From Tubiluchus corallicola (Eukaryota > Animalia > Priapulida): 53,231 bases of DNA. The notes under the pieces are model-generated. The model made no database searches, was not told the origin of the DNA, and worked only from the letters and a program-made list of their open reading frames with translations. Shown one piece after another: positions 19,806 through 53,231 of the stretch; within the stretch, counting starts at the first letter, position 1; each line of letters opens with the position of its first letter. The position numbers were made by a program, and so were the translations under genes. The stretch lies in the NCBI GenBank assembly GCA_030141605.1, contig JAQGDQ010001236.1:1-53231 (forward strand), read 5' to 3'.

Positions 19806-19815
19806 TTTTTAACAA

Positions 19816-20270: not shown

Positions 20271-20305
20271 TTCAATTATTAGTTATTAGTTATCATTAAG
20301 TGCAA

Positions 20306-20734: not shown

Positions 20735-20809
20735 AATTTTAGTAAGTTAAAAGTTATAAGATAAAAGATAAAAACTGTTTTTATCTTTTATCTCTTAGTT
20801 TTTAGTTTA

Positions 20810-22392: not shown

Positions 22393-22399
22393 AATTCAT

Positions 22400-23794: not shown

Positions 23795-23823
23795 AATTTT
23801 TTTATTTTAATTATTAATTTATT

Positions 23824-24780
23824 TTATATGTTTTGTGGTTTTGTTCCATATTCTTCTTTAAAAAGCCTTTTGTATTCTTGCGGGTTTTCTTGTTTTAACC
23901 TGTTTAGTTCTGTGGGGTTGGTTTTTGAAAGTTGCTCAAAGGTCAGTTCTGTAGTTGCGGTTGTAGTTGCGGTTTCATTCACATAATTAGCCAAGCTGCT
24001 TTTTTTGTCTTTGGTTTTAAGGTCTTTAATAACTTTTTCAAGGGCTTTTTTTTCAAATGATAGGTAAGTATCTTTGTCTGTTTCTTTTATAAAGCCTTGT
24101 TTTACCGCTTTGTCCACAAGATCCTGCTTTTCGGCAGCTTCTTGCTCTGCTATTTCGCTCTTAAGCTGTTCCAGTTCTTCAATATGTTTTTTAGAGAGCT
24201 GTACCGCATTTTCGGCGTCGTTTTTTAGTTTTTCAATAGCTGCCAATATGTCTGTCTCCGTAGCCTGACTATCTAAACCTAATGCCTTAGCTATTTCTTG
24301 TAAGTTTTCTTTTTCCATTACTTTTTTTACTTTTTGGGGTTTATTATTCAACTTGTTATTTATATAGCTCAATCGAACTATGTTTTTACTTTCTTTTTCA
24401 CTTAATTTAACAGCTTGGGGATTGGCAGGTATATCTACAATGGACACTTCCAAAATCTCGCTATCTATCCACGTTTCTACCCCATCTATGTTCTTTTTCA
24501 ACAGCGGCACTATACCTACACTAGTAGCATTGAGAAAGTCTTGGTTCCATTTTCTACTTACAACTCGTCCTGTTTCGTCTTGGGTATCGAAGACGGGGTC
24601 GGCTATTAGTTGCCCGTTTTCTATTCTTATATCCTCCCACCTACCTACTGGCGAGAGATAATCAAGATGATTGTAATACATTACGGGGTTCTTCTTGAAG
24701 TTTTCTAATTTAATGCCGCCAGTAAGTATCTTAAAACCGTGTCGGTTGATAGTTTCTGTATTTAATATGGCTGTTTTCAT
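23824..24780 (-). CDS. Prohead protease fused to scaffold
   Basis: FKKNPVMYYNH, TSVGI, EVSIVDIPANPQA; charged coiled-coil C-terminal half. Confidence 0.85.
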   Translation of the reverse strand: MKTAILNTETINRHGFKILTGGIKLENFKKNPVMYYNHLDYLSPVGRWEDIRIENGQLIADPVFDTQDETGRVVSRKWNQDFLNATSVGIVPLLKKNIDGVETWIDSEILEVSIVDIPANPQAVKLSEKESKNIVRLSYINNKLNNKPQKVKKVMEKENLQEIAKALGLDSQATETDILAAIEKLKNDAENAVQLSKKHIEELEQLKSEIAEQEAAEKQDLVDKAVKQGFIKETDKDTYLSFEKKALEKVIKDLKTKDKKSSLANYVNETATTTATTELTFEQLSKTNPTELNRLKQENPQEYKRLFKEEYGTKPQNI

Positions 24781-24910
24781 AAATAGAAGCCTATTTGATA
24801 GCTACAAAAATAGAGGATGGGTAAAACCTGTGCAAATAGTATACCGCTTAGCCGTGTACTATTTTCTAAAAAAAAAAGCACTTTGTATTTTTGACACAAA
24901 AAACAAGGCA
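24781..24910. promoter_or_regulatory. Divergent late promoter region
   Basis: Bacteroidota -7 consensus TAnnTTTG on both strands: TATTTTTG at 24886-24893 (+) and 24812-24805 (-). Confidence 0.6.
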
Positions 24911-25354
24911 ATGAAGCAAATAGCCCAAGTAAAGAAAGACTATGCCAAGACGTTATACCTCAACGGCGTTTCACAAAAAGAAATCGCAGAGCAACTACGT
25001 TTAGCAAAAAGTACTATAAACAGGTGGGTCAAGCCAAAGACAAAAGGAGGTGAGGGTTGGGGGCAGCTAAAAGCGGGTATGGTAACCTCTAAAGCTGAGA
25101 ACATAGCACGTATGCAAAACCTACTTAACGACTTGCTGGCAAGTATAGATAAAAAAGGTAAAGCAGATACAGGCGATATAGATAGTATAAGCAAACTTAC
25201 TACGGCTATCGAGCGTTTGGAAGGAGAGATAAACGTAACTACTGCAGTAAATGTAATGATTGACTTTTGCGATTATGTGCGTAAAGCAGAATTAGAGAGT
25301 GCAAAGGAAATAAGCAGCTATGCCGATAGCTATCTTAATTCGTTGGTAAAATGA
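24911..25354 (+). CDS. Terminase small subunit (HTH, Mu gp27/DUF1804-like); start reassigned to ATG 24911
   Basis: AKTLYL.G.SQKEIAEQL...TINRW HTH; overlaps the large-subunit start. Confidence 0.8.
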   Translation: MKQIAQVKKDYAKTLYLNGVSQKEIAEQLRLAKSTINRWVKPKTKGGEGWGQLKAGMVTSKAENIARMQNLLNDLLASIDKKGKADTGDIDSISKLTTAIERLEGEINVTTAVNVMIDFCDYVRKAELESAKEISSYADSYLNSLVK

Positions 25355-26868
25355 TAAAAGAAACCATTACACAAAAACGACAAGCTATAAACGACTGGGC
25401 AGACTACCGCAGTAACCTACTACGTGCTACCCCTGTACCAGTAGAAAGCAAAAAGGAACAAGAGGCACGTATAAAAGAACTACAAAAAGACCCTTTTGCA
25501 TTCTTTAAATTTTACTTTCCAAATTACTGCGACGCAGAGTTTGCCCCTTTTCAAAAAAGGTTTGTAAATAAAGTACTTGAAGAAAAGAAGCTATACATTA
25601 CCTTAGAAGTGGCGAGGGAACACGCCAAAAGTGTAATTACAAGTTTGTTCCTACCTGTCTACCTTATGTTTGGACGAAAAGAGAAACTGAATATGATACT
25701 AGCCAGCCATAGCTACGATAATGCTTTGGAACTACTTAGACCTCTTATAATAAACTTAGAAGACAACCAGCGTATCGTCAATGACTACGGGCAGCAAAAA
25801 GGAATAAGAGGCTGGGAAACGGGCAACTTCACTACCAAGGGCGGCAGTGCTTTCAGAGCTATTGGAGCAGGGCAAAGCCCACGAGGCAAACGCAGCGAAG
25901 AGCTAAGACCTAACTATATAGTGGTAGATGATATAGACCACGACGAGGATTTTTACAATCCTGACCGTAGCATTAAAAAATTTAAATGGGTAAGTGATGC
26001 ACTGTTTCCAGCAATGAGTGTAAAAGGGACAAAGAGATTTATAGTAACGGGCAACCGCATAAGCGATAGCGGAGTAGTGGCACAAAGTGCTGCATTTGCC
26101 GACAAGCATTACAAAGTAAACATACTGGACAGTAAAGGACAGCCTACGTGGAAGGAGCGATATAGCCTTTCGCACGTTAATTATATGCTAGGTAAAATAA
26201 GCTATGCCAGTGGACAAAGGGAGTATTTTAACAATCCAATACAAGAAGGGCTAGTGTTTAGAGATGTGCAGTTTGATAAAGTGCCTGCTTTGCGTAAATT
26301 TAAGGTGCTGATATGCTATACCGACCCTTCTTTTAAAGAGAGTAAAACAAATGATTATAAAGCTACTGCATTGGTGGGCTATAAAGATGGCAAGTACTAT
26401 GTAATAAGAGCCTTTGTAGAGCAAACTACTACGGCTAATATGCTGCAATGGTTGTACGAATTAGAAGATATGGTACCGCCAAGTGTAGCCTGCTACTTTT
26501 ATATGGAAACAAACTTTGTGCAAGATTTGGTCAAGGACAAGGTCTACGAACTATCGGTACAGCAAAATAGACCACTACATATAACGGGTGATACCCGTAA
26601 AAAGCCTAATAAATTTGCCCGCATTGAAAGCAGCCTTGAACCACTCAACAGCTCGGGTAAACTCATATTTAATGAAAAAGAGAAGAAAAACCCACATATG
26701 CAAAGGTTGGTAGAACAGTTTAAAAGCATATCGCCCAAAAGCCGTAGCCACGACGACGGACCCGATGCAGTAGAAGGGGCTGTATATATATTGAAACGCA
26801 AGCTAAAGTCAAGCAGTATAGGTACTACTGTAATGGGTGGAGCTACGAGGGGGAGGAATAAGATTTAA
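25351..26868 (+). CDS. Terminase large subunit (Mu gp28-like)
   Basis: AREHAKS Walker A variant, GQSPRG, VVDDID Walker B, YTDPS, HDDGPDAVEG nuclease motif. Confidence 0.92.
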   Translation: MIKETITQKRQAINDWADYRSNLLRATPVPVESKKEQEARIKELQKDPFAFFKFYFPNYCDAEFAPFQKRFVNKVLEEKKLYITLEVAREHAKSVITSLFLPVYLMFGRKEKLNMILASHSYDNALELLRPLIINLEDNQRIVNDYGQQKGIRGWETGNFTTKGGSAFRAIGAGQSPRGKRSEELRPNYIVVDDIDHDEDFYNPDRSIKKFKWVSDALFPAMSVKGTKRFIVTGNRISDSGVVAQSAAFADKHYKVNILDSKGQPTWKERYSLSHVNYMLGKISYASGQREYFNNPIQEGLVFRDVQFDKVPALRKFKVLICYTDPSFKESKTNDYKATALVGYKDGKYYVIRAFVEQTTTANMLQWLYELEDMVPPSVACYFYMETNFVQDLVKDKVYELSVQQNRPLHITGDTRKKPNKFARIESSLEPLNSSGKLIFNEKEKKNPHMQRLVEQFKSISPKSRSHDDGPDAVEGAVYILKRKLKSSSIGTTVMGGATRGRNKI

Positions 26869-27084
26869 TAAGATTTAATAAGATAATAGATAAAAGATTT
26901 AATAAGAGAAAAGATAAAAGATAAAAGAGAAAAACTGCTTTCATTTTTTAACTTTTAACTTTTAGTTTTTAACTTTTAACTTACTAAAAAGATAATAGAT
27001 AAAAGATTTAATAAGAGAAAAGATAAAAGATAAAAACTGCTTTCATTTTTTAACTTTTAACTTTTAGTTTTTAACTTTAATAAA
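26860..27084 (+). repeat. AAGATAA/TTTTAAC simple-repeat leader, duplicated; inverted relative to 17101-17190 and 17852-17927
   Basis: AAGATTTAATAAGATAATAGAT (26870-26891) is the reverse complement of 17169-17190; AAAAACTGCTTTCATTTTTTAACTTTTAAC occurs twice here and inverted near 17870-17900. Confidence 0.85.
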
Positions 27085-30635: not shown

Positions 30636-32777
30636 ATGGAAAGACAAATTTTAGAAACAGGTGTACGTAGGTGGTTTGGCGAGGATTGGATAAAACTACA
30701 AGATGAAATATACAAAGCATTAGAGGAAGGCATACTAGGCAACCTCGACGACTGTATACTTAGTGGTATGGAAGTAAGCCCCAACGCTAGCAACTACGAT
30801 GTAGCACCCGGTATATGCTATGTGGGGGGTAAGATAGCTATCTACGAAGGAGCTACTAACATAACATTGCCTATTAGCTTGAAGCTAAAAGAAACACCCG
30901 CAGGCGATAGGCTGTACTTAGACGGGTCTACTAAACCAACACGCACCCACTACACAGCAGCTACCGACGGCACACTGGGCGGCAATTTGGAGATAAGCTC
31001 CACGAATGACCCACGCATACAAATACCTGCCGTAAATAGCAACGGGGAGCTGATAGGAGTAGTGAAAAGCGACAGTATATTAGAAGACGATACCAACACC
31101 TTAGCTACTAGCAAAGCTGCCTTTGAGCTTACACAGGTGGCAGCAGTCTTATCGTCGCGTATTGCCAACCTTGAAGCTTTGCAAGATGTAAGGTGCGTAG
31201 CTAAGCAAGTAGCACCGGGAGAACTGCCACTGGCCGAGACCACCATAAACTTACAGCTGTTTAGAGCTTCGGACAATACAGATGTGATAGACTTAGACGA
31301 GGTAAATAATAAGTTCTTGTTAAAAACAGAGGGCATACACGTAATATCCTACGAGGGTTCGTGGGTGAACGAAGACGGTAGCAATAGAGATATATTTATA
31401 CGCATAAGAGACGAAGGCGGAGTATTGATAGACGAAAGGAAGGTACTTATTACTGGTTCGGGAGGAGGCGACGATGGTAATGCCAATGTAACACACTCTG
31501 TAATATTGGATATTTCTACTCCCACAAAGGAGATAAGCATATCGGCAGAAGCCAGTGGCGACCAAGTAGAGCAGCAGTTTTTTAAAGCTACAGCCTCCAA
31601 GATGTCCTCTCTCTCGGGAGGTATCCCAGACCTTGACCCCAGTAGTAACGTAGAGACCGACGCAGCAGGGAGTTTGATAGCTGTAAGTAAAGAAACAGGG
31701 CATAACCTGCCCAAGAGTGACAGCCCCACACTTAACGACAGCAACACCTTAGCCACTAGTAAGGCGGTGAGGGATGCCACAAGGGGTAGCAATACCACAC
31801 AAGTACAAATAGGAGATAATGCAGAAGCCAGTGGCAGCAATTCCACCGCAGTGGGATACCAAGCAGAGGCCAGTGGTGGCAATTCCACCGCAGTGGGAGA
31901 AAGAACAGTCGCCAATGACAACAGTTGCACCGCATTGGGATATAGAGCAGAATCAACTGGCGTCCAATCCACCGCAGTTGGATACCAAGCAGCATCCAGT
32001 GGCGGCAATTCCACCGCCGTGGGAGACAGTGCAACAGCCATAGGCGGAGGAACCTCCGCACTGGGAAGAAGTGCAGCAGCCACTGGCACCTTTTCCACCG
32101 CACTGGGAAGAAATACAACAGCCACTGGCAACACATCTACCGCAGTGGGAAGCTTCGCAGCAGTCAGTAGGGACTCTTCCACCGCACTGGGAGGCGATTC
32201 AGTAGCCAGTGGCAGCAATTCCACCGCAGTGGGATCCAACGCAAATGTATCAGCAAGCAACACTATGGTGCTTGGGACATCTTCCACTACTGTTCTTTTA
32301 GGCGATGGAACAACCGTAATATCCGATAAGCGAGATAAGATAGACATAGCAGATAATGATTTGGGACTGGACTTTGTAAAACAGATAAAAACCCGCAAAT
32401 GGAGAGGCAACAATAGAGACCAATATTGGATAAAAGAAAAAGTAAAAGAAAAAAGAGAAGGAGCAGCAGAGGCAGAAGAGATAGAAGTATTCAAAACAGA
32501 CGAGAAAGGCGAGCGTGTATACGATGCTGAGGAGCACGCCAAGGGTAGCAAGGCAGGCAAACGCTGGCATCGTGGGATAATATCCCAAGAGATGTTAGAG
32601 CTCATAGATCCTATGGAATTTTCAGGGGTGAAGGATACAGAGGTAAATAATCCTGACATCAACAACCAACAAATGGGATTTTCATATAATCAGTTAATCG
32701 CTCCTATGATAAAAGCGATACAAGAATTGTCTGCAAAAGTAGAAGAGCAGCAAACACAGATAGAACAATTGGCTTGA
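30636..32777 (+). CDS. Tail fibre F1: baseplate-binding N-domain, middle beta domain, 11 YadA-like 14-aa repeats, peptidase S74-like intramolecular chaperone
   Basis: STA(V/L)G repeats; SDKRDK.DI, GLDFV, HRGIISQE, Y.QLIAPMIKAIQEL S74 motifs. Confidence 0.88.
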   Translation: MERQILETGVRRWFGEDWIKLQDEIYKALEEGILGNLDDCILSGMEVSPNASNYDVAPGICYVGGKIAIYEGATNITLPISLKLKETPAGDRLYLDGSTKPTRTHYTAATDGTLGGNLEISSTNDPRIQIPAVNSNGELIGVVKSDSILEDDTNTLATSKAAFELTQVAAVLSSRIANLEALQDVRCVAKQVAPGELPLAETTINLQLFRASDNTDVIDLDEVNNKFLLKTEGIHVISYEGSWVNEDGSNRDIFIRIRDEGGVLIDERKVLITGSGGGDDGNANVTHSVILDISTPTKEISISAEASGDQVEQQFFKATASKMSSLSGGIPDLDPSSNVETDAAGSLIAVSKETGHNLPKSDSPTLNDSNTLATSKAVRDATRGSNTTQVQIGDNAEASGSNSTAVGYQAEASGGNSTAVGERTVANDNSCTALGYRAESTGVQSTAVGYQAASSGGNSTAVGDSATAIGGGTSALGRSAAATGTFSTALGRNTTATGNTSTAVGSFAAVSRDSSTALGGDSVASGSNSTAVGSNANVSASNTMVLGTSSTTVLLGDGTTVISDKRDKIDIADNDLGLDFVKQIKTRKWRGNNRDQYWIKEKVKEKREGAAEAEEIEVFKTDEKGERVYDAEEHAKGSKAGKRWHRGIISQEMLELIDPMEFSGVKDTEVNNPDINNQQMGFSYNQLIAPMIKAIQELSAKVEEQQTQIEQLA

Positions 32778-39605: not shown

Positions 39606-40142
39606 ATGGATGCAAAAGAAAGAATAAAACAATTTCTTGATAAACAGGGGATTACAAAGTACAGGTTTTATAAAGAAACTAAACTTTCTGATGGTTTTTT
39701 AGACAAAAAAAGCAACACCCGTATGGATATAGCTGAAAACATCCTGTTATCTTATGATATAAATCCCGAATGGTTATTAACTGGCAAGGGCGAGATGTTG
39801 AAAAGTTGTGAAAAAAAATATTTGATTGATTTGCGCGAGTTATTTACATTTGATACTTCTAAACAACCTCCTGAAGCCTTAAATGAATTGAAAAAAAAGA
39901 TCATTCAGTACATTACCAATAACTATAATGTTGGTGGAGATATTGTAGGAAAGACAAAAATAACAGGTAGTAACATAGTATCTAAATCGAAAGGAGATGT
40001 TACTATTGGTAGTTATAATATGTCTAATGATGAAAATTTGCAAGAAAAAATAAAGCATCAAACCGAAGTAATTAACCAACTCCAAGAACGACTAAAAGAT
40101 AAAGATGCTATTATTGAATTAATGAAAAAACAAGACAAGTAA
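39606..40142 (+). CDS. CI-like prophage repressor
   Basis: ERIKQF...F.KET.LS.G HTH, INPEWLLTGKGEM, coiled-coil C-terminus; no S24 domain evident. Confidence 0.8.
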   Translation: MDAKERIKQFLDKQGITKYRFYKETKLSDGFLDKKSNTRMDIAENILLSYDINPEWLLTGKGEMLKSCEKKYLIDLRELFTFDTSKQPPEALNELKKKIIQYITNNYNVGGDIVGKTKITGSNIVSKSKGDVTIGSYNMSNDENLQEKIKHQTEVINQLQERLKDKDAIIELMKKQDK

Positions 40143-40370
40143 GATAATTAGCCTCTTCTCCCTCCCTTTTATCATTACGAATTGTACAGTAGATTGTTTG
40201 CGGCTTGTGGTAGAAAACATAAGTTTCTGATATATAGGCATTTATAAAAAAGGCAGCTTTTTAAGCTGTTTTTTTGTGTCGTTTTGGGTAATTATAAGGC
40301 TAAAAAAAGGCTTTAAACAGTGTTTTTATGTCGTTTTCAAGTGGTTTAAAGCCCCTTTTTTTGGCTTAAT

Positions 40371-40407
40371 TGACACCCCAGCTGACACTCCAGCTGACAT
40401 CCCAGCT
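40371..40407 (+). repeat. Three 12-bp tandem repeats TGACAYYCCAGC near the repressor-proximal end
   Basis: TGACACCCCAGC TGACACTCCAGC TGACATCCCAGC. Confidence 0.85.
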
Positions 40408-40574
40408 ATTTTTTAGGCTGTTTTTTTGCATAAAAAAAGGGGGCTTTTTACCCCCTGTATAGGCTGTTTTTTGCCTGTATGTTACTGTGTGTTTGTATTG
40501 TGTGGCTTGTTTTAAGGCTTATTAGGCTGTTTGTATGATTTAAGTTAGCATATAGTTAGGTTCTGTTGCATAAA

Positions 40575-40690
40575 TGTACATTTCGTTTTGTTGAGCTTGT
40601 TTTTATATATAGGCTGTATCTCTTATAAAAAGTGATTTTTGCTGCTGTTTTGTTATTTGCTTATATGTACGTTTTGTTTTGTCCCTTATA
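40575..40690 (-). repeat. Prophage right end with putative transposase-binding sites
   Basis: Reverse complement of 40666-40690 is TATAAGGGACAAAACAAAACGTACA (19/25 to the left end); inner site CAAAACGAAATGTACA at 40575-40590. Confidence 0.78.
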
Positions 40691-41420
40691 AATTGTTGCC
40701 TAAAGTTTATATTAATTTTACACAAATTATTTTTCTCAAAGATTAAAAGTAGTATTTTTATATATAGCTATGTTCTAATAGTGCAATACATTTATATTAT
40801 AGTAGGATTAAGCATAAAAAAAGGTGTATTAACCGTTACTTATCTACCTTCTAAAGTATTAAAGTACTCACGACACAAAACAAACACAGCATCAGTCATA
40901 TTCAACGTTTTGTGTCGTCTTTTTTCTCCAATTTTTAAAAAAACAGGGTAATTTAGATACTATGTATCTAACCCCGTGTTTTAAAGTTTAAATGCAGAAA
41001 ATTAGAAATTTTCTGCATTTTTTTCATTTTTTTGTTTTATATCCATAATAGTTTATCTATTATTTATCTCATTCCTTTTTTCAATAGACTTATCTATATT
41101 TTCAAAATAGCTCTTAGAATTCTTTTTTGCTTTTTAATTTAATTACTTGTTATTTTATTCTTTTACTATTTGCAATTTCTTGCTTTTATGTCATCTGTCG
41201 TAGGTTTGTAAGACGTTATTTGTTTTTAATTTCTTGTAACGATTTGATTTTTTTGATTATGCTTGGTTATTAGATAAGTTGGTTCTAAACTAAAAATAAA
41301 AGATGAAATATTTAGGCGGTATGATATAATATGTTCTTAGTATTTGTTTTTAGACGGTTAATTGTCCACTAAAAGAGTATAATAATACTGAACAACCACC
41401 CTGAAAGATAGTGGTTGTTT

Positions 41421-41467
41421 TTTGTGCATTTCGCATTAAATTTCTGCACATTTCGTTTTTAGTTACA
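41421..41467 (-). mobile_element. Orphan Mu/IS21-like transposon end
   Basis: Reverse complement TGTAACTAAAAACGAAATGTGCAGAAATTTAATGCGAAATGCACAAA: two CGAAATG cores 22 bp apart, TG terminus. Confidence 0.5.
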
Positions 41468-41485
41468 AAAAAATGAAAGTTGAAA

Positions 41486-42244
41486 TTAAGACAAATTGCT
41501 TGTTCCTTTCTTTATATTGCGTTTTACGTCAATAGAGTAAGTATATCCTTCTGATACATACCACCCCTCGTTGTATTCTATAGGCTTATCGCCAATATCA
41601 TAAACCAAGCGTTTTCTATACAATACAGGGTCTCCAACATCTATGTTTAGTTTAGACGATAAAAACTTGTCAGCTATTACAGCTTTTATCTCTTCTCGTG
41701 AAAGAACTGGGATAATACCTTTCTCTTTTTCTAATTTATCATATAAAGAAATATTTTTGAGATTATCCTTATCACTTAGTCCAATCCTTGGATGAAAAAC
41801 AGACGTAAAATAAACATTCCGCCGTTTATTAAGCCCTCTAACTCTGGCTAATCTGAATAGCTCAGTACCTTCGTTTATGTTAAAAAAATACTTTTGTTCT
41901 GCAGAGGGAGGCACCCAAGAAGTTTCTACTTCTATATTTTGAAATTTTGTGCTACTATCGCCAACTTCTTGAACAAAGTCTAACCACGAATCGTGCTCAA
42001 TATTAAAATTGTGGCTTTTAACTTTTGTGCCCACTCCCTTTTTTCGTTCTAGAAGCCCTTCGAAAACAAGTGTATTTATTGCTTGACGTACCGTATTTCT
42101 TGATACTCCTGTTTTTTTAGCAATTTCATCTTCGCGAGGTATTAATTTCCCATTTTTATACTCGTCCTCTTTTATAAGGTTTCTAATGTATTTTTCTATC
42201 TGATAATGATAAGGAAGACCGCTATTTTTATCTATTATTAGCAT
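41486..42244 (-). CDS. GntR-family (HutC/UTRA) transcriptional regulator
   Basis: IPREDEIAKKTGVSRNTVRQAI..LV.EGLLERKKGVGT wHTH; UTRA-like C-terminus. Confidence 0.92.
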   Translation of the reverse strand: MLIIDKNSGLPYHYQIEKYIRNLIKEDEYKNGKLIPREDEIAKKTGVSRNTVRQAINTLVFEGLLERKKGVGTKVKSHNFNIEHDSWLDFVQEVGDSSTKFQNIEVETSWVPPSAEQKYFFNINEGTELFRLARVRGLNKRRNVYFTSVFHPRIGLSDKDNLKNISLYDKLEKEKGIIPVLSREEIKAVIADKFLSSKLNIDVGDPVLYRKRLVYDIGDKPIEYNEGWYVSEGYTYSIDVKRNIKKGTSNLS

Positions 42245-42436
42245 AATATGATATTCTTTAAGTAGTTGTTAATAGTCTGTTGCAAACATACAATATATAT
42301 ACATATTATAAATTATTTTTTTACAATCGTATAATCGCCAAAACGAATTGTATATTTTTTACACCTTTTTTTGTTTTAAAAAACGATTATTGCTGAAAGT
42401 AAATTTAATCTATTGTCTGATAAAAGAAATAATGCT

Positions 42437-42547
42437 ATGAAAAATACATTCTTAATCTTATTTTCGCTTTTAATATTTATAAGCTGCGAGAAAGAAGAAC
42501 AATTTAAGGGCGGTTGTATTCTGCTGTGCAGAATTGGTAATTTATAA
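42437..42547 (+). pseudogene. Lipoprotein gene 5' end truncated by the repeat element
   Basis: MKNTFLILFSLLIFISCEKEEQ (lipobox) runs directly into TTTAAGGGCGG repeat sequence. Confidence 0.55.
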
Positions 42548-43494
42548 TTGTTGTCTTTTCTTCTTGTTCTTTTTTTATATGTTCTTTGGCTTGACCCAAA
42601 GAACCAACCGAGCGTAGCGAGCTCGCGAGTGCCTTTGAGTATTTTAGTTGTACGAGCAAAGCTCAAGCCTGTAAATGTTTTTCTTTACGCTCTTTTTTTA
42701 TGTTCTTTGGCTTGACCCAAAGAACCAAAACTCAAGCCTGTAAATTCTTTTGATGAAAAACTAAGCTGTCGGCTACGCTATCTTCTCAAAACTCGCCTTT
42801 TTACAAAAGGCTCAAACAGAAAATCTTCTTTTTTCTCCTTCGCTACAAAGGGCTTAACGCTATTTTTATTAGGCGGTATCGTATTCTGCTTCGCAGAATT
42901 TTAATTTTGCTGTTTCTCTTTTCTCTTTTATCTTTTATCTCTTATCTTTTCTCTTATTAAATCTTTTCTCTTTTTCTGTTAAAACCCTTTAAGGGCGGTT
43001 GTATTCTGCTGTGCAGAATTGGTAATTTATAATTGTCGTCTTTTCTGTTTTGTTCTTTTTTCTATGTTCTTTGGCTTGACCCAAAGAACCAACCGAACGT
43101 AGTGAGCTCGCGAGTTCCTTTGAGTATTTTAGTTGTACGAGCAAAGGTCAAGCCTGTAAATGTTTTTTTTTATGTTCTTTGGCTTGACCCAAAGAACCAA
43201 CCGAACGTAGTGAGCTCGCGAGTTCCTTTGAGTATTTTAGTTGTACGAGCAAAGGTCAAGCCTGTAAATGTTTTTTTTTTATGTTCTTTGGCTTGACCCA
43301 AAGAACCAAAGGTCAAGCCTGTAAATTCTTTTGATGAAAAACTAAGCTGTCGGCTACGCTATCTTCTCAAAACTCGCCTTTTTACAAAAGGCTCAAACAG
43401 TGAGAAGATTTTTCGCTCCGCCTTTCGCTGTTTTTCTATCAAAAGCCTTTAAGGGCGGTCGTTTCTGCTACGCAGAATTACTAACTGTTAATTA
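42503..43494 (+). repeat. Composite repeat block: pseudoknot heads with 52-bp inserts, an A/B chimeric element and variant A
   Basis: Same motifs as 16714-17190 and 22400-22828. Confidence 0.9.
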
Positions 43495-45624
43495 CTACTT
43501 TTTCAATTGTTTTACTTCGTTAAGAAGTTTTTCTATTTGTGTTTGTTGTTTTTTTGCCTGTTTTTTCTGTTGCTCTATCTGTGTTTGCTTTTCTTCTACT
43601 TTTGTTGATAGTTCTTGTATGGCTTTTATCATAGGGGCTATGAGTTGGTCGTAGGCAAATCCCATTTCTTGGTGGTTGATGTCGGGGTTGTTCACCTCTG
43701 TGTCCTTCACACCCGAAAACACCATAGGGTCTATGAGCTTGAGCATCTCTTGGGCTACTATCCCCCTGTGCCAGCGTTTGCCTGCTTTGCTCCCCTTGGC
43801 GTGTTCCTTAGCATCGTATACACGCTCGCCTTTCTCGTCTGTTTTGAATACTTCTCTTTCTTCTGCCTCTGCTGCTCCTTCTCTTTTTTCTTTTACTTTT
43901 TCTCTTATCCAATATTGGTCTCTATTGTTGCCTCTCCATTTGCGGGTTTTTATCTGCTTTACAAAGTCCAGTCCCAGCTCATTATCGGCTATGTCTATCT
44001 TATCTCGCTCGTCGGAAGTTACCACATTACCATTGCCTAGTTTTACAGTGGTGTCAGACCTCCCAAGCACCATAGTGTAGTCTGCTGATACATTTGCATT
44101 GTATCCCAGTGCGGTGGAATAGCGGCCACTGGCTTCTGCACTTCGTCCCAGTGCGGTGGAATCGCGGCCACTGGCTGCTGCTCTGTATCCCACTGCGGTG
44201 GAAGAGTCGCCACTGGCTTCTGCACGGAATCCCAGTGCGGTGGATTGGTCACCACTGGCTTTTGCAAGTCGTCCCAGTGCGGTGGAATGGTCGCTACTGG
44301 CTGCGGCTTCGTATCCCAGTGCGGTGGAAAAGTCGCCACTGGCTGTTGCAAGTCGTCCCAGTGCGGTGGAACCGCTGCCACTGGCTTCTGCTTGGCTTCC
44401 CAGTGCGGTGGATTGGTCACCACTGGCTTCTGCATTATTTCCCAGTGCGGTGGATTGGTCACCACTGGCTTCTGCTAAGTATCCCAGTGCGGTGGAATCG
44501 CTGTGACTGGCTTTTGCTTTGTATCCCAGTGCGGTGGAATTTTCACCACTGGCTTTTGCCCAGTATCCCAGTGCGGTGGAATTGTCACCACTGACTTCTG
44601 CTAAGTCTCCCAGTGCGGTGGAATAGTCGCTTCTAGCTGATGCACCGTTTCCCAGTGCGGTGGAATAGAGGCCACTGGCTTTTGCCCAGTATCCCAGTGC
44701 GATGGAATCGCTGTGACTGGCTTTTGCTTTGTATCCCAGTGCGGTGGACCAGTCGCCACTGGCTTCTGCTTCGTTTCCCAGTGCGATGGATTGGATGCCA
44801 CTGGCTGTTGCGAGGTATCCCAGTGCGGTGGAAGAGCTGCCACTGGCTGCTGCATTATCTCCTATTTGCACCTGTATGGTAGAACTACCTCTTGTGGCAT
44901 CCCTCACTGCCTTACTAGTGGCTAAGGTGTTGCTGTCGTCAAGTGTGGGGTTGTCGCTCTTGGCGTTGGGTAAGTCACTTAGCTTGTCGTGTACCGCCTT
45001 ACTGGTGGCTAAGGTGTTGCTACTGTTTAGTGTGGTGCTGTCGCTTTTGGGTAGGTTATGCCCTGTTTCTTTGTTTACGGCTACCAAGCTACCCGTTCCG
45101 TCGGTCTCTACGTTGCTATTGGGGTCTTGTACAAGGCTTAGCCTTTCTGTTAGGGCTTGTTGGTAGCTGCGTAGGGTGCTGTTGCCATTGACATCAGGAG
45201 AGCTAAGGGTTAGGTAGTCTTCAGGGGCGTCTGGTGGGTTGCCTACTACTACGGCTTCTATTAGTTCGCTGTAGTCTTTGTTCTCGCCGTTCTGATATAC
45301 CTTTTTAGTTGGTGTTTCTTGTTTTTCAAGGTATTTGTTGGCACTCAGGTCTATGCTGCTGCCTCCTTGAAACCAGCAAAGCTTAGCATCTATTACGCAG
45401 TAGCCGCTGCCTATGTCCCACAGCCCGCCGCCTTTGTCGGTAAACTTAAAGCCGTCTATCACAAAGCCTTCTTTGCCTCGTGTGGTGTTGGGGGTGGTAT
45501 TGGCTATGGATAAAAATCTATCCCACACATCGTACACTGCATTTAGTCTTAACACATCGGCCATAAACTCGGGTCTCCCGCCGGTCTTTGCCAATATCCT
45601 TTTTCTTTCTTCTGTTTGAATCAT
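43495..45624 (-). CDS. Tail fibre F2: divergent N-domain, 19 YadA-like repeats, S74-like chaperone, short coiled coil
   Basis: Shares DPNSNVETD and KSD..L.DSNTLATSK linkers and a near-identical S74 domain with F1. Confidence 0.88.
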   Translation of the reverse strand: MIQTEERKRILAKTGGRPEFMADVLRLNAVYDVWDRFLSIANTTPNTTRGKEGFVIDGFKFTDKGGGLWDIGSGYCVIDAKLCWFQGGSSIDLSANKYLEKQETPTKKVYQNGENKDYSELIEAVVVGNPPDAPEDYLTLSSPDVNGNSTLRSYQQALTERLSLVQDPNSNVETDGTGSLVAVNKETGHNLPKSDSTTLNSSNTLATSKAVHDKLSDLPNAKSDNPTLDDSNTLATSKAVRDATRGSSTIQVQIGDNAAASGSSSTALGYLATASGIQSIALGNEAEASGDWSTALGYKAKASHSDSIALGYWAKASGLYSTALGNGASARSDYSTALGDLAEVSGDNSTALGYWAKASGENSTALGYKAKASHSDSTALGYLAEASGDQSTALGNNAEASGDQSTALGSQAEASGSGSTALGRLATASGDFSTALGYEAAASSDHSTALGRLAKASGDQSTALGFRAEASGDSSTAVGYRAAASGRDSTALGRSAEASGRYSTALGYNANVSADYTMVLGRSDTTVKLGNGNVVTSDERDKIDIADNELGLDFVKQIKTRKWRGNNRDQYWIREKVKEKREGAAEAEEREVFKTDEKGERVYDAKEHAKGSKAGKRWHRGIVAQEMLKLIDPMVFSGVKDTEVNNPDINHQEMGFAYDQLIAPMIKAIQELSTKVEEKQTQIEQQKKQAKKQQTQIEKLLNEVKQLKK

Positions 45625-45689
45625 CTTTTTTTGAATTTAAAATTTATTATATGCCTTTTTACTTATTATATTTTATTTTCAATGGTACT

Positions 45690-47730
45690 TGTGAGTTCCT
45701 TTGAAAGTGAAGTTTGTGAGCAAAGGTCAAGCCTGTAAATGCTTTTCTTTATGTTCTTTGGCTTGACCCAAAGAACCAACCGAACGTAGTGAGCTCGCGA
45801 ACTCCTTTGAGTATTGTAGTTGTATGAGCAAAAGAGCCAACCGAGCGAAGCGAGCTCGCGAACTCCTTTGAAAGCAAAGTTTGTGAGCAAAAAATCAAGC
45901 CTGTAAATTCTTTTGATGAAAAACTATGCTGTCGGCTACGCTATCTTCTCAAAACTCGCCTTTTTACAAAAGGCTCAAACAGTGAGAAGATTTTTCGCTC
46001 CGCCTTTCGCTGTTTTTCTATCAAAAGCCTTTAAGGGCTTTTGTATTCTGCTGTGCAGAATTGGTAATTTATAATTGTCGTTTTTTCTCTTTTGTTCTTT
46101 TTTTTATGTTCTTTGGTTTGATACAATTCTTATGTTCTTTTGCCTTGATGCAAAAGAACCAACCGAACGTAGTGAGCTCGCGAACTCCTTTGAAAGCAAA
46201 GTTTGTGAGCAAAACTCAAGCCTGTAAATGTTTTTCTTTACGCTCTTTTGTCTTGATACAAAAGAGCCAAAAAATCAAGCCTGTAAATTCTTTTGATGAA
46301 AAACTAAGCTGTCGGCTACGCTATCTTCTCAAAACTCGCCTTTTTACAAAAGGCTCAAACAGTGAGAAGATTTTTCGCTCCGCCTTTCGCTGTTTTTCTA
46401 TCAAAAGCCTTTAAGGGCGGTCGTATTCTGCTTCGCAGAATTGGTAATTTATAATTGTCGTCTTTTCTTCTTGTTCTTTTTTTTATGTTCTTTGGCTTGA
46501 TACAATTCTTTATGTTCTTTGGCTTGACCCAAAGAACCAACCGAACGTAGTGAGCTCGCGAGTTCCTTTGAGTATTTTAGTTGTACGAGCAACCGAACGT
46601 AGTGAGCTCGCGAGTTCCTTTGAGTATTTTAGTTGTACGAGCAACCGAACGTAGTGAGCTCGCGAGTTCCTTTGAGTATTTTAGTTGTACGAGCAAAGGT
46701 CAAGCCTGTAAATGTTTTTCTTTATGTTCTTTGGCTTGACCCAAAGAACCAACCGAACGTAGTGAGCTCGCGAGTTCCTTTGAGTATTTTAGTTGTACGA
46801 GCAACCGAACGTAGTGAGCTCGCGAGTTCCTTTGAGTATTTTAGTTGTACGAGCAACCGAACGTAGTGAGCTCGCGAGTTCCTTTGAGTATTTTAGTTGT
46901 ACGAGCAAAGGTCAAGCCTGTAAATGTTTTTCTTTATGTTCTTTGGCTTGACCCAAAGAACGAAAACTCAAGCCTGATTTTAAATTTCTGAACTTCTACA
47001 CTTCGCTACACTAAAATGTGCTAAACTCGTTCGCTCAGTAATTCGCTCTCTCAAACAGAGCCCATTTTTACGTTTCGCTGCGTTTGAAGTTTTACGAAAT
47101 TTTAAATAGGGCGGTCGTATTCTGCTTCGCAGAATTAGTAATTTATAATTGTCGTTTTTTCTCTTTTCTCTTATTAAATCTTTTATCTTTTCTATCAAAA
47201 GCCTTTAAGGGCGTTTGTATTCTGCTTCGCAGAATTAGTAATTTATAATTGTCGTCTTTTATCTTTTCTGTTTTCTCTTTTCTCTTATTAAATCTTTTAT
47301 CTTTTCTGTTAAAAGCCTTTAAGGGCGGTTGTATTCTGCTTCGCAGAATTTTAATTTTGCTGTTTCTCTTCTCTCTTTTCTCTTTTATCTCTTATCTTTT
47401 CTCTTATTAAATCTTTTCTGTTTTTCTATCAAAAGCTTTTAAGGGCGTTTGTGTTCTGCTGTGCAGAATTTTAATTTTGCTGTTTCTCTTCTCTCTTCTC
47501 TCTTCTCTCTTCTCTCTTCTCTCTTCTCTGTTTTCTCTTTTATCTCTTTTATCTCTTATCTTTTCTCTTATTAAATCTTCTCTGTTTTTCTATCAAAAGC
47601 CTTTAAGGGCGGTTGTATTCTGCTTCGCAGAATTGGTAATTTATAATTGTCGTCTCTTATCTTTTCTCTCTTATCTTTTCTCTTATTAAATCTTTTCTGT
47701 TTTTCTATCAAAAGCCTTTAAGGGCGGTTG
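45690..47730 (+). repeat. Large composite repeat block: variants A and C, tandem 52-bp units, hairpins, CTCTT microsatellite
   Basis: 52-bp units at 46539, 46591, 46643, 46751, 46803, 46855; variant C at ~46940-47112. Confidence 0.9.
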
Positions 47731-48050
47731 TTGTGTTTTTGCTTTGAGGTCTTTTGCTGCAAATAAGACGTTATTGGCTTTTATAGTTCCGTTTACGTGT
47801 AGTTTGGTTTGTAGGCTGTCAGTGCCTATATGCCTACATTACCGCTGTTTACATTGCTTATATTATCACCCGTTGTCTCCCATGTTTTTGGAGCGGCTAC
47901 CAAGCTACCCGCCTCGTCTTTCTCTACGTTGCTATTGGGGTCTTGCACAAGGCTTAGCCTTTCTGTTAGGGCTTGTTGTTAGCTGCGTAGGGTGCTGTTG
48001 CCATTTACATCAGGAGGGCTAGGGGTTAGGTAGTCCTCAGGGGCGTCCAG
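47731..48050 (-). pseudogene. Tail fibre fragment F5: end of the F2-type N-domain joined to an F3-type GIGT domain
   Basis: Translates DAPEDYLTPSPPDVNGNSTLRS*QQALTERLSLVQDPNSNVEKDEAGSLVAAPKTWETTGDNISNVNSGNVGI, with an internal stop and a frameshift. Confidence 0.75.
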
Positions 48051-48063
48051 TGTAAAATTTATT

Positions 48064-49803
48064 TTACACCCACTCAAAGCCACCGTTGCCATCGGCTGTA
48101 AGCACCTGTCCGGCTTCGCCTGTACTTCCTTTTTTATCTACTAAGCTTGTTATTTTTGTTCTGCCGCTCACTGTCAAAGTGTCTGTAGTAGGTGAGGTGC
48201 CTATGCCTATTTTCCCACTGTTTAATATTGTCAGATAATCAGTCAATCCGCTATCGGTAGATGCGTTGCCTCCCCTTATCTTTAAACTGCTGCTGGTGCC
48301 AGAGGTTTGGTAGATGTTCCACTCGCTGCTGCCATTTGAATTTCGAAGACTTATACCTCCTTCATCGTTGTTGTTTGTTCTTTGCAGCACCAAGCCCACT
48401 CCTATTCGTGGGAGGTCTCTAATGTGCAATGCAGCAGCTACACTACCTGTTGTATTTATTCCAAACTTACCCGCTGTATCAATCTCTGCTACATTACCGC
48501 CTACGTGAAGATAATTACCCTGTCCGTCGCCTATTTGAATGCGAATTATCCCTTCCTTCACGCTAAATCTAACAGACCTGTCGTTTGACTCTTGGCCGTC
48601 TCTAATAGCAAAGGTTGAAAGATCGCCTGTTGAGCCAAAGAAAGCTACTACTTGGTCGCTTCCTTCTACGTGAAGTGCTTTTACTGGTGAGCTTGTGCCT
48701 ATGCCTACATTACCGCTGTTTACATTGGTTATATTATTGCCGTTTGTCTCCCAAGTTATTGGCACTGCTACCAAGTCCCCCGCTCCGTCAGTCTCTACGT
48801 TACTACTGGGGTCAAGGGGTGGGAGGGGAGAAATATCTCCCGAGAGAGATGACATCTTGGAGGCTGTAGCTCTAAAATACTGCTGCTCTACTTGGTTGCC
48901 ACTGGCTTCTGCCGATATGCTTATCTCCTTTGTGGAAGTAGAGATATCCAACATTATAGAGTGCGTTACCTTGGCTTTGCCATCGTCGCCCGTACCCGAA
49001 CCAGTAATAAGTACCTGCCTTTCGTCTATCAATGCTCCGCCTTCGTCTCTTATGCGTATAAATATATCTCTATTGCTACCGTCTTGGTTCACCCACGAAC
49101 CCTCGTAGGATATTGCGTGCATACCCTCTGTTTTTAACAATAACTCATTATTTACCTCGTCTAAGTCTACTACATCTGTATTGTCCGAAGCTCTAAACAG
49201 CTCTAAGTTTATGGTGGTCTCGGTCTGTGGCAGTTCTCCCTGTGCTACTTGCTGAGCTACGCACCTCACATCTTGCAAAGCTTCAAGGTTGGCAATACGC
49301 GACGATAAGACTGTTGCTACTTGTGTAAGCTCAAAGGCAGCTTTGCTAGTAGCTAAGGTGTTGGTATCGTCTTCTAATATACTGTCGCTCTTGGCATTGG
49401 GTAGGTTGCTTAGCTTGTCATTTACCGCCTTACTGGTGGCTAAGGTGTTGCTGTCGTCAAGGGTGGTGCTGTCGCTTGTTCCTGTTATTAGGTTTCCATT
49501 TACTTTTACATTCCCATTCACTTCCAGTTTTTCGCTAGGTGAGCTTGTGCCTATACCTACATTATTATCGCTTTTAACTACAAGTGCGTTGTTTTTTATG
49601 TTTACTTCTCTTGTTGTTCCAAGCAGCTTGATTGTATCGTCTTGCCCTATGTTTACGTCATTGGGTGCACTGGGGGTGCTTGTGTTGAACGTTCCTGTAC
49701 CTTCTTTGTACGACTGTAAATTGCTTGTACCCCCTCCACCTGTACCGGGAGCGGTGCTATGTGCTCTGTTGAGTGTTGTAATGTCTACTTTGGGTAATGC
49801 CAC
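48064..49803 (-). CDS. Chimeric fibre-like protein F3: sheath-like first 14 aa, NVGIGT shaft motifs, F1-type middle domain, different C-terminal region, no S74
   Basis: KSDSILEDDTNTLATSK...DPSSNVETD is highly similar to F1; repeated GNVGIGTSSP; starts MALPKVDITTLNRA. Confidence 0.8.
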   Translation of the reverse strand: MALPKVDITTLNRAHSTAPGTGGGGTSNLQSYKEGTGTFNTSTPSAPNDVNIGQDDTIKLLGTTREVNIKNNALVVKSDNNVGIGTSSPSEKLEVNGNVKVNGNLITGTSDSTTLDDSNTLATSKAVNDKLSNLPNAKSDSILEDDTNTLATSKAAFELTQVATVLSSRIANLEALQDVRCVAQQVAQGELPQTETTINLELFRASDNTDVVDLDEVNNELLLKTEGMHAISYEGSWVNQDGSNRDIFIRIRDEGGALIDERQVLITGSGTGDDGKAKVTHSIMLDISTSTKEISISAEASGNQVEQQYFRATASKMSSLSGDISPLPPLDPSSNVETDGAGDLVAVPITWETNGNNITNVNSGNVGIGTSSPVKALHVEGSDQVVAFFGSTGDLSTFAIRDGQESNDRSVRFSVKEGIIRIQIGDGQGNYLHVGGNVAEIDTAGKFGINTTGSVAAALHIRDLPRIGVGLVLQRTNNNDEGGISLRNSNGSSEWNIYQTSGTSSSLKIRGGNASTDSGLTDYLTILNSGKIGIGTSPTTDTLTVSGRTKITSLVDKKGSTGEAGQVLTADGNGGFEWV

Positions 49804-49847
49804 TTTGAGTTAAAAATTAAAGGTTATTAGTTAAAAGTTATTAGTTA

Positions 49848-49996
49848 TTAGTTATTAGTTATTGATTTATCTATTAGTTTATTATAGATTTCTTCTGTGT
49901 ATTCTTTGTTAGATTTTCCTATTTTAAGGTTGCCCAGTTGTGTTGCTATTTCTATGAGTTGTTTGCTTTTAAGTGTTTTTAAATAGTCTGTTAGTT
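49848..49996 (-). pseudogene. 3' remnant of a homolog of the pre-sheath gene (22006-22392)
   Basis: DYLKTLKSKQL..IATQL..LKIGKSNKEYTEEIYNKL aligns with EYIETLKQAQLQALCKDL..IKVGTSNLQYVEQIKEKL; 5' part replaced by repeat sequence. Confidence 0.6.
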
Positions 49997-51034
49997 CTTT
50001 TTTTATGTTCTTTGGTTTGATACAATTCTTTATGTTCTTTTGCCTTGTTCTTTCTTTATGTTCTTTGGCTTGACCCAAAGAACCAAAGGTCAAGCCTGAT
50101 TTTAAATTTCTGAACTTCTACACTTCGCTACACTAAAATGTGCTAAACTCGTTCGCTCAGTAATTCGCTCTCTCAAACAGAGCCCATTTTTACGTTTCGC
50201 TGCGTTTGAAGTTTTACGAAATTTTAAATAGGGCGGTCGTATTCTGCTTCGCAGAATTGGTAATTTATAATTGTCGTCTTTTCTCTTTTCTCTCTTATCT
50301 TTTCTCTCTTATCTTTTCTCTTATTAAATCTTTCGCTGTTTTTCTATCAAAAGCCTTTAAGGGCGGTCGTATTCTGCTATGCAGAATTTTAATTTTGCTG
50401 TTTTTCTCTTCTCTTTTCTCTTTTATCTTTTATCTTTTATCTTATTAAATCTTTTCTCTTTTGTTCTTTTTTTTATGTTCTTTGGTTTGATACAATTCTT
50501 TATGTTCTTTCTTTATGTTCTTTTCTTATGTTCTTTCTTTATGTTCTTTCTTTATGTTCTTTTCTTATGTTCTTTTCTTATGTTCTTTCTTTATGTTCTT
50601 TCTTTATGTTCTTTCTTTATGTTCTTTTGCCTTGATGCAAAAGAACCAAAAGATCAAGCCTGATTTTAAATTTCTGAACTTCTACACTTCGCTACACTAA
50701 AATGTGCTAAACTCGTTCGCTCAGTAATTCGCTCTCTCAAACAGAGCCCATTTTTACGTTTCGCTGCGTTTGAAGTTTTACGAAATTTTAAATAGGGCGG
50801 TCGTATTCTGCTTCGCAGAATTTTAATTTTGCTGTTTCTCTTCTCTCTTTTATCTTTTCTCTTTTATCTTTTATCTTTTATCTTTTTCTGTTAAAAGCCT
50901 TTAAGGGCGGTCGTATTCTGCTTCGCAGAATTTTAATTTTGCTGTTTCTCTTCTATCTGTTATCTTTTATCTTTTATCTTTTATCTTTTATCTTTTAAGG
51001 GCGTTTGTATTCTGCTATGCAGAATTAGTAATTA
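49997..51034 (+). repeat. Composite repeat block: two variant C elements, TTTATGTTCTTTC tandem run, hairpins
   Basis: Variant C bodies at ~50094-50233 and ~50658-50798 match 32867-33007. Confidence 0.9.
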
Positions 51035-53231
51035 CTACTTTTTCAATTGTTTTACTTCGTTAAGAAGTTTTTCTATTTGGGTCTGTTGTTTTTTTGCTTG
51101 TGTTTGTTGTTGCTCTATCTGTGTTTGTTGTTTTTCTATTTGTGTTTGTTGTTTTTTTGCTTGTGTTTGTTGTTGCTCTATCTGTGTTTGTTGTTTTTTT
51201 GCCTGTGTTTGTTGTTGCTCTATTTGGGTCTGTTGTTTTTTTGCCTGTGTTTGTTGTTGTTGTATTTGGGTTTGTTGTTTTTCTATTTGGGTCTGTTGTT
51301 TTTTTGCTTGTGTTTGTTGTTTTTCTATTTGGGTTTGTTGTTTTTCTATTTGGGTTTGTTGTTTTTCTATTTGGGTTTGTTGTTTTTCTATTTGGGTTTG
51401 TTGTTTTTCTATTTGTGTTTGTTGTTTTTCTATTTGTGTCTGTTGTTTTTTTGCCTGTGTTTGTTGTTTTTCTATTTGTGTCTGTTGTTTTTTTGCTTGG
51501 GTTTGTTGTTGCTCTATTTGTGTTTGTTGTTGTTCTGCTTGTGTTTGTTGTTGCTCTATTTGTGTTTGTTGTTTTTCTATTTGGGTCTGTTGTTTTTTTG
51601 CTTGTGTTTGTTGTTTTTTTGCCTGTGTTTGTTGTTTTTTTGCCTGTGTTTGTTGTTGTTGTATTTGGGTTTGTCTATTTGGGTCTGTTGTTTTTCTGCC
51701 TGTGTTTGTTGTTTTTCTATTTGTGTTTGTTGTTGTTCTATTTGGGTCGATAGTTCTTGTATGGCTTTTATCATAGGGGCTATGAGTTGGTCGTAGGCAA
51801 AGCTCATTTCTTGGTGGTTGATGTCGGGGTTGTTCACCTCTGTGTCCTTCACACCCGAAAACACCATAGGGTCTATGAGCTTGAGCATCTCTTGGGCTAC
51901 TATCCCCCTGTGCCAGCGTTTGCCTGCCTTGCTCCCCTTGGCGTGCTCCTTAGCATCGTATACGCGCTCGCCTTTCTCGTCTGTTTTGAATACTTCTCTT
52001 TCTTCTGCCTCTGCTGCTCCTTCTCTTTTTTCTTTTACTTTTTCTCTTATCCAATATTGGTCTCTATTGTTGCCTCTCCATTTGCGGGTTTTTATCTGCT
52101 TTACAAAGTCCAGTCCCAGCTCATTATCGGCTATGTCTATCTTATCTCGCTCGTCGGAACTTACCGTGCTGCCATTGCCTAGTTTCACAGTAGTATTAGA
52201 GTTCCCAAGCACCATAGTGTAGTCTGCTGATACATATGAATTGTATCCCAGTGCGGTGGAATGGATGCCACTGGCTGTTGCATTGTATCCCAGTGCGGAG
52301 GAAAAGCTTCCACTGGCTTCTGTATAGTATCCCAGTGCGGTGGAATAGGTGCCACTGGCTGTTGCATTGTATCCCAGTGCGGTGGAACCGCTGCCACTGG
52401 CTTCTGCAAATCGTCCCAGTGCGGTGGAATTGCTGTTACTGGCTTCTGCAAGTATCCCAGTGCGGTGGATGTGCAGGCTTTTGCACTTGGTCCCAGTGCG
52501 GTGGAAGAGTACCTAGTGGCATCTGCCAGTTCCCACTGCGGTGGACTGGTGGCCACTGGTTGTTGCTGCTCGTCCCAGTGCGGTGGAGTGGCTGCCACTG
52601 GCTGTTGCTTAGCGTCCCATGCGGTGGAAGAGTTGCCACTGGCTTGTGCTGGCGTCCCAGTGCGGTGGATAAGTGCACTTAGGCGTTGCTTCGTTTCCCA
52701 GTGCGGTGGAATCTTGGGCACTGGCTGTTGCTTGATATCCCAGTGCGGTGGAACTGGTACCACTTGATTCGGCACTATCTCCTATTTGCACCTGTTGGGT
52801 AGAACTACCCCTTGTAGCATCCCTCAACCCCTTACTGGTGGCTAAGGTGTTGCTGTCGTTAAGCGTGGGGCTGTCGCTTTTCACTACTCCTATCAGCTCC
52901 CCGTTGCTATTTACGGCAGGTATTTGTATGCGTGGGTCATTCGTGGAGCTTATCTCCAAATTGCCGCCCAGTGTGCCGTCGGTAGCTGCTGTGTAGTGGG
53001 TGCGTGTTGGTTTAGTAGACCCGTCTAAGTACAGCCTATCGCCTGCGGGTGTTTCTTTTAGCTTCAAGCTAATAGGCAGTGTTATGTTAGTAGCTCCTTC
53101 GTAGATAGCTATCTTACCCCCCACATAGCATATACCGGGTGCTACATCGTAGTTGCTAGCGTTGGGGCTTACTTCCATACCACTAAGTATACAGTCGTCG
53201 AGGTTGCCTAGTATGCCTTCCTCTAATGCTT
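51035..53231 (-). pseudogene. Tail fibre F4 (5' end off window): F1-identical N-domain, ~14 YadA-like repeats with frameshifts, S74-like chaperone, expanded coiled coil
   Basis: 52871-53231 is the reverse complement of 30715-31075; indels in ~52430-52690 and near 51675; same KLLNEVKQLKK end as F2. Confidence 0.8.
51068..51750 (-). repeat. 21-bp (heptad) tandem repeat, ~32 copies, encoding QIEKQQT/QAKKQQT coiled coil
   Basis: Units such as CAAATAGAAAAACAACAAACA read on the minus strand. Confidence 0.9.

Follow-up and report, generated by a model that had tools for sequence, protein, structure and literature searches.

A dense mosaic of phage tail-fibre cassettes beside a Mu-like prophage in a contig of the Tubiluchus corallicola assembly

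The contig JAQGDQ010001236.1 of the Tubiluchus corallicola assembly GCA_030141605.1 carries, close to a Mu-like prophage, a real and unusually dense locus of mosaic tail-fibre genes. The window is the whole stretch of 53,231 nucleotides that was analysed, and the locus, here called the array, occupies 42330-53231. Its four cassettes (F2 to F5) are built from modules that are also found in the prophage's own fibre gene (F1). Our preferred explanation, which we consider about evenly balanced between right and wrong, is that the array is a stack of what deletions left of related Mu-like tail operons, and that it is a passive donor of sequence when resident prophage fibres undergo homologous recombination. 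The host of the window DNA appears to be Bacteroidales-like; its HtpG protein is most similar to that of an uncultured Bacteroidales metagenome-assembled genome (78%) and to Saccharicrinis homologues (70-72%), with 26 of the 64 parts of the collection scanned.

An earlier note on this DNA, made from the letters alone, described the five fibre genes as differing combinations of common modules, and all five formulas are upheld at the DNA level by pairwise blastn comparison and a linker motif scan. F1 and F4 share the N1 module over 361 nt with 99.7% identity, reaching the end of the window, whereas their distal parts are only about 79% identical. The L1-M-L2 region is shared by F1 and F3 (629 nt, 91% identity), the YadA-S74 region by F1 and F2 (957 nt, 80%), and the L2-GIGT segment by F3 and F5 (121 nt, 83%), while F2 has 1098 nt in common with F4 (85%) and 154 nt with F5 (93%). 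YadA-S74 is common to F1, F2, and F4, with 10, 18, and 13 repeat anchors, respectively. The motif scan places L1 at 31716, 52878, 49476, 45045, and 44958, with two further M-linked L1 variants at 31068 and 49389, L2 at 31635, 48813, 47942, and 45126, and GIGT at 49563, 48711, 48213, and 47840.

The search with residues 1 to 370 of F1 yields 269 clusters, and among the 150 listed, 149 match at the N-terminus. An alignment of this N-terminal domain was searched in overlapping sets, with matches in 10 of the 401 sampled genomes of the order and in one genome each of two families (77 and 133 genomes). We fetched 5-40 kb around seven strong loci in six genomes, leaving out genome G450 and four weak matches; none of the seven comes from a close relative, and one of the contigs stops directly past its fibre. 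Because the gene that opens with the N1-family domain comes after the baseplate genes in six of these seven loci, we read the domain as a baseplate anchor. A hidden Markov model (HMM) of the N1-family clusters also detects N2 of F2 (E 3e-20) and leaves F3 unscored. N1 and N2 thus diverge from each other within a single anchor family (269 clusters), which means that at least two phage lineages contributed to the locus. An identity of the fibres as host adhesins, resembling the mosaic adhesive trimer (MAT) proteins, was set aside, since the anchors are phage-type.

Two of the seven loci, L104 (G229:C71) and L109 (G101:C116), are syntenic tail-only clusters that run from sheath to fibre between host genes of two Bacteroidales genomes. 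They carry the N1 anchor family, no head or transposase genes are seen in the DNA fetched, and they are candidate Mu-derived tailocins. All seven loci have a single fibre and no second fibre or paralog, and the cassette-plus-repeat layout, for which the earlier note had proposed a search in related genomes, did not recur in any of them.

The cassettes differ in their state of preservation, and part of the evidence comes from assembled short-read contigs. X1, X2, and X3 are three runs of one sample, which may be the source of the window and so may not be independent of it, and X4 is a run from another study; four of the five listed runs contain the stretch, and the contigs used are the best entries of longer lists. 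F2 (43495-45624, minus strand) encodes a fibre of 709 aa with the order N2-L2-L1-L1-18 YadA units-S74-short coil, and an X1 contig (45171-45747) bridges its 5' end. F2 is intact, and as its N2 belongs to the anchor family according to the HMM, it has its own baseplate anchor and represents the whole fibre of another phage lineage. F5 (47765-48047, minus strand) is a pseudogene fragment, in which only the 3' end of N2 is left in front of L2 and the GIGT' domain. It contains a nonsense codon at 47981 and a 2-nt insertion near 47830, and this frameshift falls within an exact X1 contig (47735-47976).

F3 (48064-49803, minus strand; contigs 48016-48927 and 49459-50041) is an open frame of 579 codons without an anchor, composed of a sheath-like start followed by N3-L1-L1-M'-L2 and a GIGT domain. 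The N1-family HMM indicates that N3 is not an anchor domain. The first 45 nt of F3 are identical to the sheath start at 30 of 45 positions, compared to at most 28 in 300 shuffles. Next to it lies a remnant of the 3' half of a pre-sheath gene (49851-49991, minus strand), recognised by its alignment with the prophage gene at 22006-22392 (tblastn E 1.5e-4). Because the pre-sheath remnant and the sheath start keep the order of the prophage (22392-20810), F3 was most likely born of a deletion running from sheath to fibre. The GIGT region of F3 matches the Bdellovibrio MAT fibre Bd2133 (PDB ID 8ond, E 3e-6).

F4 (51035-53231, minus strand), the 5' end of which lies beyond the window, consists of N1-L1-13 YadA units-S74 and a long coil of 21-nt units, and it is frameshifted as assembled. 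Six of seven consecutive YadA units have lost 1-6 nt, and the coil has lost 7 nt once; since the changes are deletions only and clustered, they suggest a consensus error of the assembly. The coil (51088-51732) has about 31 copies of the 21-nt unit versus about four in F2 and reads as a length-variable heptad stalk behind the S74 chaperone. The prophage fibre F1 (30636-32777, plus strand) encodes 713 aa with the order N1-L1-M-L2-L1-YadA repeats-S74, supported by Pfam, blastn, and the motif scan. Its final codons (32769-32777) are supplied by a downstream repeat element, and the C-terminal coil of the F2/F4 type is cut off at a 7-nt microhomology. The predicted structure of M resembles a TNF/C1q-like knob, a call that is tentative because the fold confidence is low (predicted local distance difference test score of 50; best Foldseek E 1.2e-3, none at or below 1e-3).

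The 10,902 bp of the array divide into 6,350 bp of fibre, 4,076 bp of repeat, and 476 bp of other sequence. Three repeat arrays, all on the minus strand, were delimited by repeat analysis: the first (42503-43493) is composed of palindromic units resembling repetitive extragenic palindromes and short tandem units, and the others follow at 45693-47732 and 49991-51034. The earlier view that only repeats and small phage-gene remnants separate the cassettes holds for the repeats, but instead of several remnants we find one, the end of the pre-sheath gene with the start of the sheath gene. The repeat core coreA has 9 copies in the prophage, 14 in the array, and none in the 12.5-kb host flank, and an inversion inside the prophage is located on such repeats. 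Many short-read contigs have foreign flanks, indicating more copies of the repeat cores elsewhere. No Rfam family matches 40000-53231 at an E of 0.5 or below, and the cores are absent from 115 fetched loci.

The short-read contigs show how the modules are joined in the samples. Three N1-L1 joins are found in X1, namely the F1 type (depth 49.7), F4's own (22.2), and a third allele (82.8). The joins fall at differing letters inside L1 (31070, 31077, and the F1 type), and the seven L1 copies all differ from one another. In X4, the M-L2-GIGT path departs at 48695, inside the GIGT motif, into 183 unrelated letters, and an N1 contig runs on into a diverged baseplate gene. Because of the N1-L1 joins and the new domain after GIGT in X4, alternative module joins at linkers exist in nature. 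A further candidate from X4, that the phage fibre and F3 have one C-terminal module, has only depth sums (19.5 + 10.5 versus 33) and no N1-M join among the contigs listed, and it was not used. The depths in X1 are about 21-36 for host and cassette contigs (host about 21-28), 46-70 for the prophage allele, and about 77-115 for a second baseplate/terminase allele; depth is not copy number and gives only a hint of several phage copies. Some parts of the prophage have low depth in X1, to which we attach no meaning as the contig records are filtered.

These several phage alleles, the error-ridden appearance of F4, the lack of a visible target-site duplication at the approximate ends of the prophage, and the fact that no listed contig spans the whole region could be taken to mean that most of the array is an assembly error, with several phage copies and repeats wrongly put together. 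We hold this to be extremely improbable, as contigs at host-like depth bridge the edge between the GntR gene and the array, the repeat-F2 junction, and the path M'-L2-GIGT-F5, and an X4 contig bridges repeat, pre-sheath remnant, and F3.

The identity between the fibre paralogs is patchy, suggesting gene conversion. The differences are clustered in all four fibre pairs tested (permutation p 0.0002-0.012). F1 and F2 have a dS of 0.52 in S74 but are identical over stretches of 52, 45, and 46 nt inside 147 nt; a 68-nt exact run is found at the L1-M start of F1 and F3, and there are near-identical S74 tracts. Together with the three N1-L1 joins and the new domain after GIGT, this bears out one part of the earlier note's proposal of a reservoir reshuffled at built-in linkers, namely that recombination takes place at common linkers. 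S74 is under purifying selection (dN/dS 0.10-0.20), and M has a dN/dS of 0.63, which is not distinguishable from neutral (p 0.21).

The last value would also fit inert debris, that is, mosaicism that arose earlier among free phages and an array that no longer exchanges, as would the pseudogene F5, the fusion F3, the probable deletion of a head gene in the prophage (see below), and the general occurrence of fibre mosaicism among phages. We regard this as improbable, since the N1 modules of F1 and F4 are almost identical while their distal parts have diverged, the 68-nt run and the S74 tracts have stayed exact or nearly so, and the second study has a path that continues past GIGT into another domain.

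The earlier note saw no dedicated diversifying enzyme, and our searches agree: no recombinase or reverse transcriptase (RT) family is matched among 50 open reading frames (ORFs) with Pfam or 37 with PHROGs, and the only integration-type enzyme within the window is the MuA transposase. With regard to an invertase or shufflon, no serine or tyrosine recombinase is found by the cassettes up to 53231, nor a constant crossover site in every cassette, the L1 copies and join positions being variable. With regard to a diversity-generating retroelement (DGR), neither an RT match nor a template/variable repeat pair is found within the window, and the cassettes differ by whole-module swaps and not by adenine-specific changes. 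These results make a dedicated switching system of the shufflon, invertase, or DGR type with its enzyme outside the window very unlikely, although F1 and F4 form a 361-nt inverted repeat and related hankyphages diversify their fibre by a DGR (PMC12135933). An inversion between the two N1 copies would, moreover, displace the end of the prophage.

According to the passive-donor explanation, related phages would have inserted or recombined here repeatedly, via repeats in common with the array, and deletions would then have taken away nearly everything but the fibre 3' ends, leaving products such as the pseudogene F5 and the sheath-fibre fusion F3. Within one cell, modules for receptor binding would then move between array and active phage copies through homology at L1, L2, GIGT, YadA, and S74, by RecA-type recombination of the host or by gene conversion. 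The array is found 1.6-12 kb beyond the repressor/transposase end of the prophage, and the host DNA that hankyphage packages beside its own transposase end amounts to about 30 bp (PMC12135933); by this analogy the array would not travel in virions, so the exchange would occur in the lysogen.

Several observations weigh against this explanation. Random decay should not leave almost only fibre (6,350 bp, with other phage genes making up about 190 bp), the reading frames of F2 and F3 stay uninterrupted over 709 and 579 codons, and the 5' junction of F3 is kept at about 96% identity in X4. The clustered differences could also stem from uneven selection, and S74 of F2 and F4 has a dN/dS of 0.2 (p 0.006), which may pre-date silencing. 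A Rad52-like phage recombinase, the chief driver in the lambda study discussed below, was not identified in the prophage with Pfam or PHROGs. The DNA upstream of F4 lies beyond the window, and no direct transfer from array to virion is observed in the contig data.

The survival of almost only fibre DNA and the open frames of F2 and F3 keep alive the idea of a selected store behind a tail operon that continues past the end of the window. This operon would belong to a second prophage or to a tailocin derived from Mu, with F4 as its principal fibre and F3, F5, and F2 as its maintained extra fibres. We rate this as possible, though rather unlikely. All four cassettes and the repeats have one orientation, downstream of F4, the X4 contig with N1 enters a baseplate gene, the deletion-only, clustered frameshifts of F4 resemble consensus error, tail-only clusters with the N1 anchor family exist in G229:C71 and G101:C116, and xenorhabdicin loci are reported to carry up to six extra fibres without an invertase (10.1101/2025.04.19.648921). 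Those two tail-only clusters, however, have one fibre and no paralog, the anchor of F2 is about as distant from N1 as the anchors of other phages, and F5 is decayed. Furthermore, no Bacteroidota -7 promoter box is present upstream of F2 or F3, and an inversion inside the array could not exchange co-oriented cassettes. Unlikely, in our judgement, is also a wider proposal, in which selection maintains a bank of fibre modules in the host chromosome, outside the prophage, and gene conversion at the built-in linkers makes it available to several co-resident Mu-like phages or to a tailocin derived from Mu. With such a bank of silent cassettes, transposable phages would be able to change host range without a recombinase, much as in antigenic variation.

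Searches for closer relatives gave little. No close relative of F1 is found in the genome-contig or viral-contig collections, the baseplate protein has no relative in viral contigs, and the linker DNA patterns have no match in viral and metagenome contigs. The protein search with F1 returns generic YadA/S74 matches only, residues 1 to 380 of F3 give only GIGT-type matches (among shorter proteins), residues 1 to 200 of F2 have no match among proteins of 389-1241 aa, and N2 and N3 find only unnamed viral clusters in the ESM Atlas. The sheath query found nothing in the five nearest-hit genomes (0/5), which is uninformative. No off-prophage fibre array in Bacteroidota was found in full-text literature searches, which cover few subscription papers.

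The neighbouring prophage (12583-40688, ends approximate) was delimited by Pfam and PHROG matches and end motifs at 12591, 12613, 40576, and 40667. It carries lysis, head, contractile tail, baseplate, and repressor genes, the named products being amidase, Mu portal, gp36, tape measure, tube, sheath, capsid, terminase, GemA, MuB, and MuA. Its Mu-like nature is indicated by MuA/MuB, the Mu portal, gp36, GemA, and the repeated end sites, and its MuA has distant tblastn matches to the hankyphage and Peternella_1 transposases. A second prophage copy in short-read contigs has identical terminal letters and then other DNA beyond, and no direct repeat that would mark a target-site duplication is seen at the inferred ends, which are approximate. 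A host GntR/UTRA regulator (41486-42244, minus strand; Pfam; X1 contig 41335-42502) separates the prophage from the array. On the other side, the host ORF at 9118-11205 (695 aa) has no Pfam match at an E of 0.001 or below.

The segment from hub to terL (17087-26932) is inverted relative to related prophages, in which terL is followed by gp36 and portal, and is bounded by 72-bp inverted repeats (17087-17155 and 26861-26932). The inversion exchanges the distal halves of two divergent operons with all genes staying co-oriented, so it may be neutral or switchable; it may be real or an assembly effect. The portal-neck spacing (14475-15036) is only about 560 bp compared to about 2 kb in relatives, and a gpF-like head morphogenesis gene seems to be mostly deleted there, for which reason the prophage may be defective. 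Further contigs depart from the window near the repressor. One, at 39542, joins the repressor control region straight to phage terminal letters and a foreign flank and is likely another prophage copy without the repressor gene. A variant repressor allele with replaced segments (39634-40069) suggests a sister phage of different immunity, and departures at 40708 and 40929 point to an empty site or alternative allele, plus another insertion near the prophage end.

The earlier note had ranked the locus as the best candidate for an undescribed system. An undescribed, purpose-built library is not supported: neither a dedicated enzyme nor a constant crossover site was found in the window, F5 is a pseudogene and F3 a sheath-fibre fusion, the layout is absent from the seven related loci, and there are published precedents. 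What the locus offers is tail-fibre mosaicism caught in the making, with donors and recipients in one chromosome and with linkers that can be named as the breakpoints. Even as debris, the array would illustrate clearly how a genome is rearranged by repeats and by transposable prophages present in several copies.

In Mu (Gin), P1 (Cin), p15B (Min), and the shufflons, alternative distal fibre parts are placed on a common N-terminus, which needs an invertase as well as crossover sites that stay constant, and the window yielded neither. The Bdellovibrio MAT fibres are likewise chimeric trimeric fibres with S74 chaperones, and the GIGT domain of F3 resembles Bd2133, but the MATs are described as cell-surface adhesins (PMC10769870), whereas F1, F2, and F4 bear a putative phage baseplate-anchor domain. 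Hankyphage (p00) is also a Mu-like phage of Bacteroidota with a variable fibre, its MuA being 28% identical over a third of the protein; unlike here, where neither an RT nor a template/variable pair was found, a DGR diversifies its fibre (PMC12135933). Several fibre genes per tailocin are reported for Kosakonia and Pseudomonas (PMC6629978).

The closest precedents are the xenorhabdicin loci and the defective prophages that serve as donors to phage lambda. The xnp1/xbp1 loci have up to six extra fibre genes near the main fibre, some without an N-terminal anchor, no invertase is reported, and distal exchange was inferred by the authors (10.1101/2025.04.19.648921). The same type of feature is present here, with extra fibres, F3 and F5 without an anchor, and no invertase in the window. 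The xenorhabdicin genes lie inside a P2-type tailocin locus and inversion was inferred, whereas the present cassettes, which share one orientation and are set between repeat arrays, are located outside a full Mu-like prophage, and one of them is a full gene with a second anchor. In the lambda system, the defective prophages Qin and Rac donate stf/tfa regions by homologous recombination, with chromosomal fibre remnants homologous to the active phage fibre and no site-specific enzyme (PMC3945230). Here, too, a gene of an active phage has decayed phage homologues in its own genome; the lambda donors are scattered and Rad52-like recombinases dominate, while the four donors of the array are packed into 11 kb and a Rad52-like recombinase was not identified in the prophage. 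The passive-donor scheme is thus already known in kind (PMC3945230; 10.1101/2025.04.19.648921). If the array is maintained and used, Bacteroidota Mu-like phages would have a third host-range route that draws on a store in the host chromosome, in addition to the DGR known from hankyphage and the invertase known from Mu.

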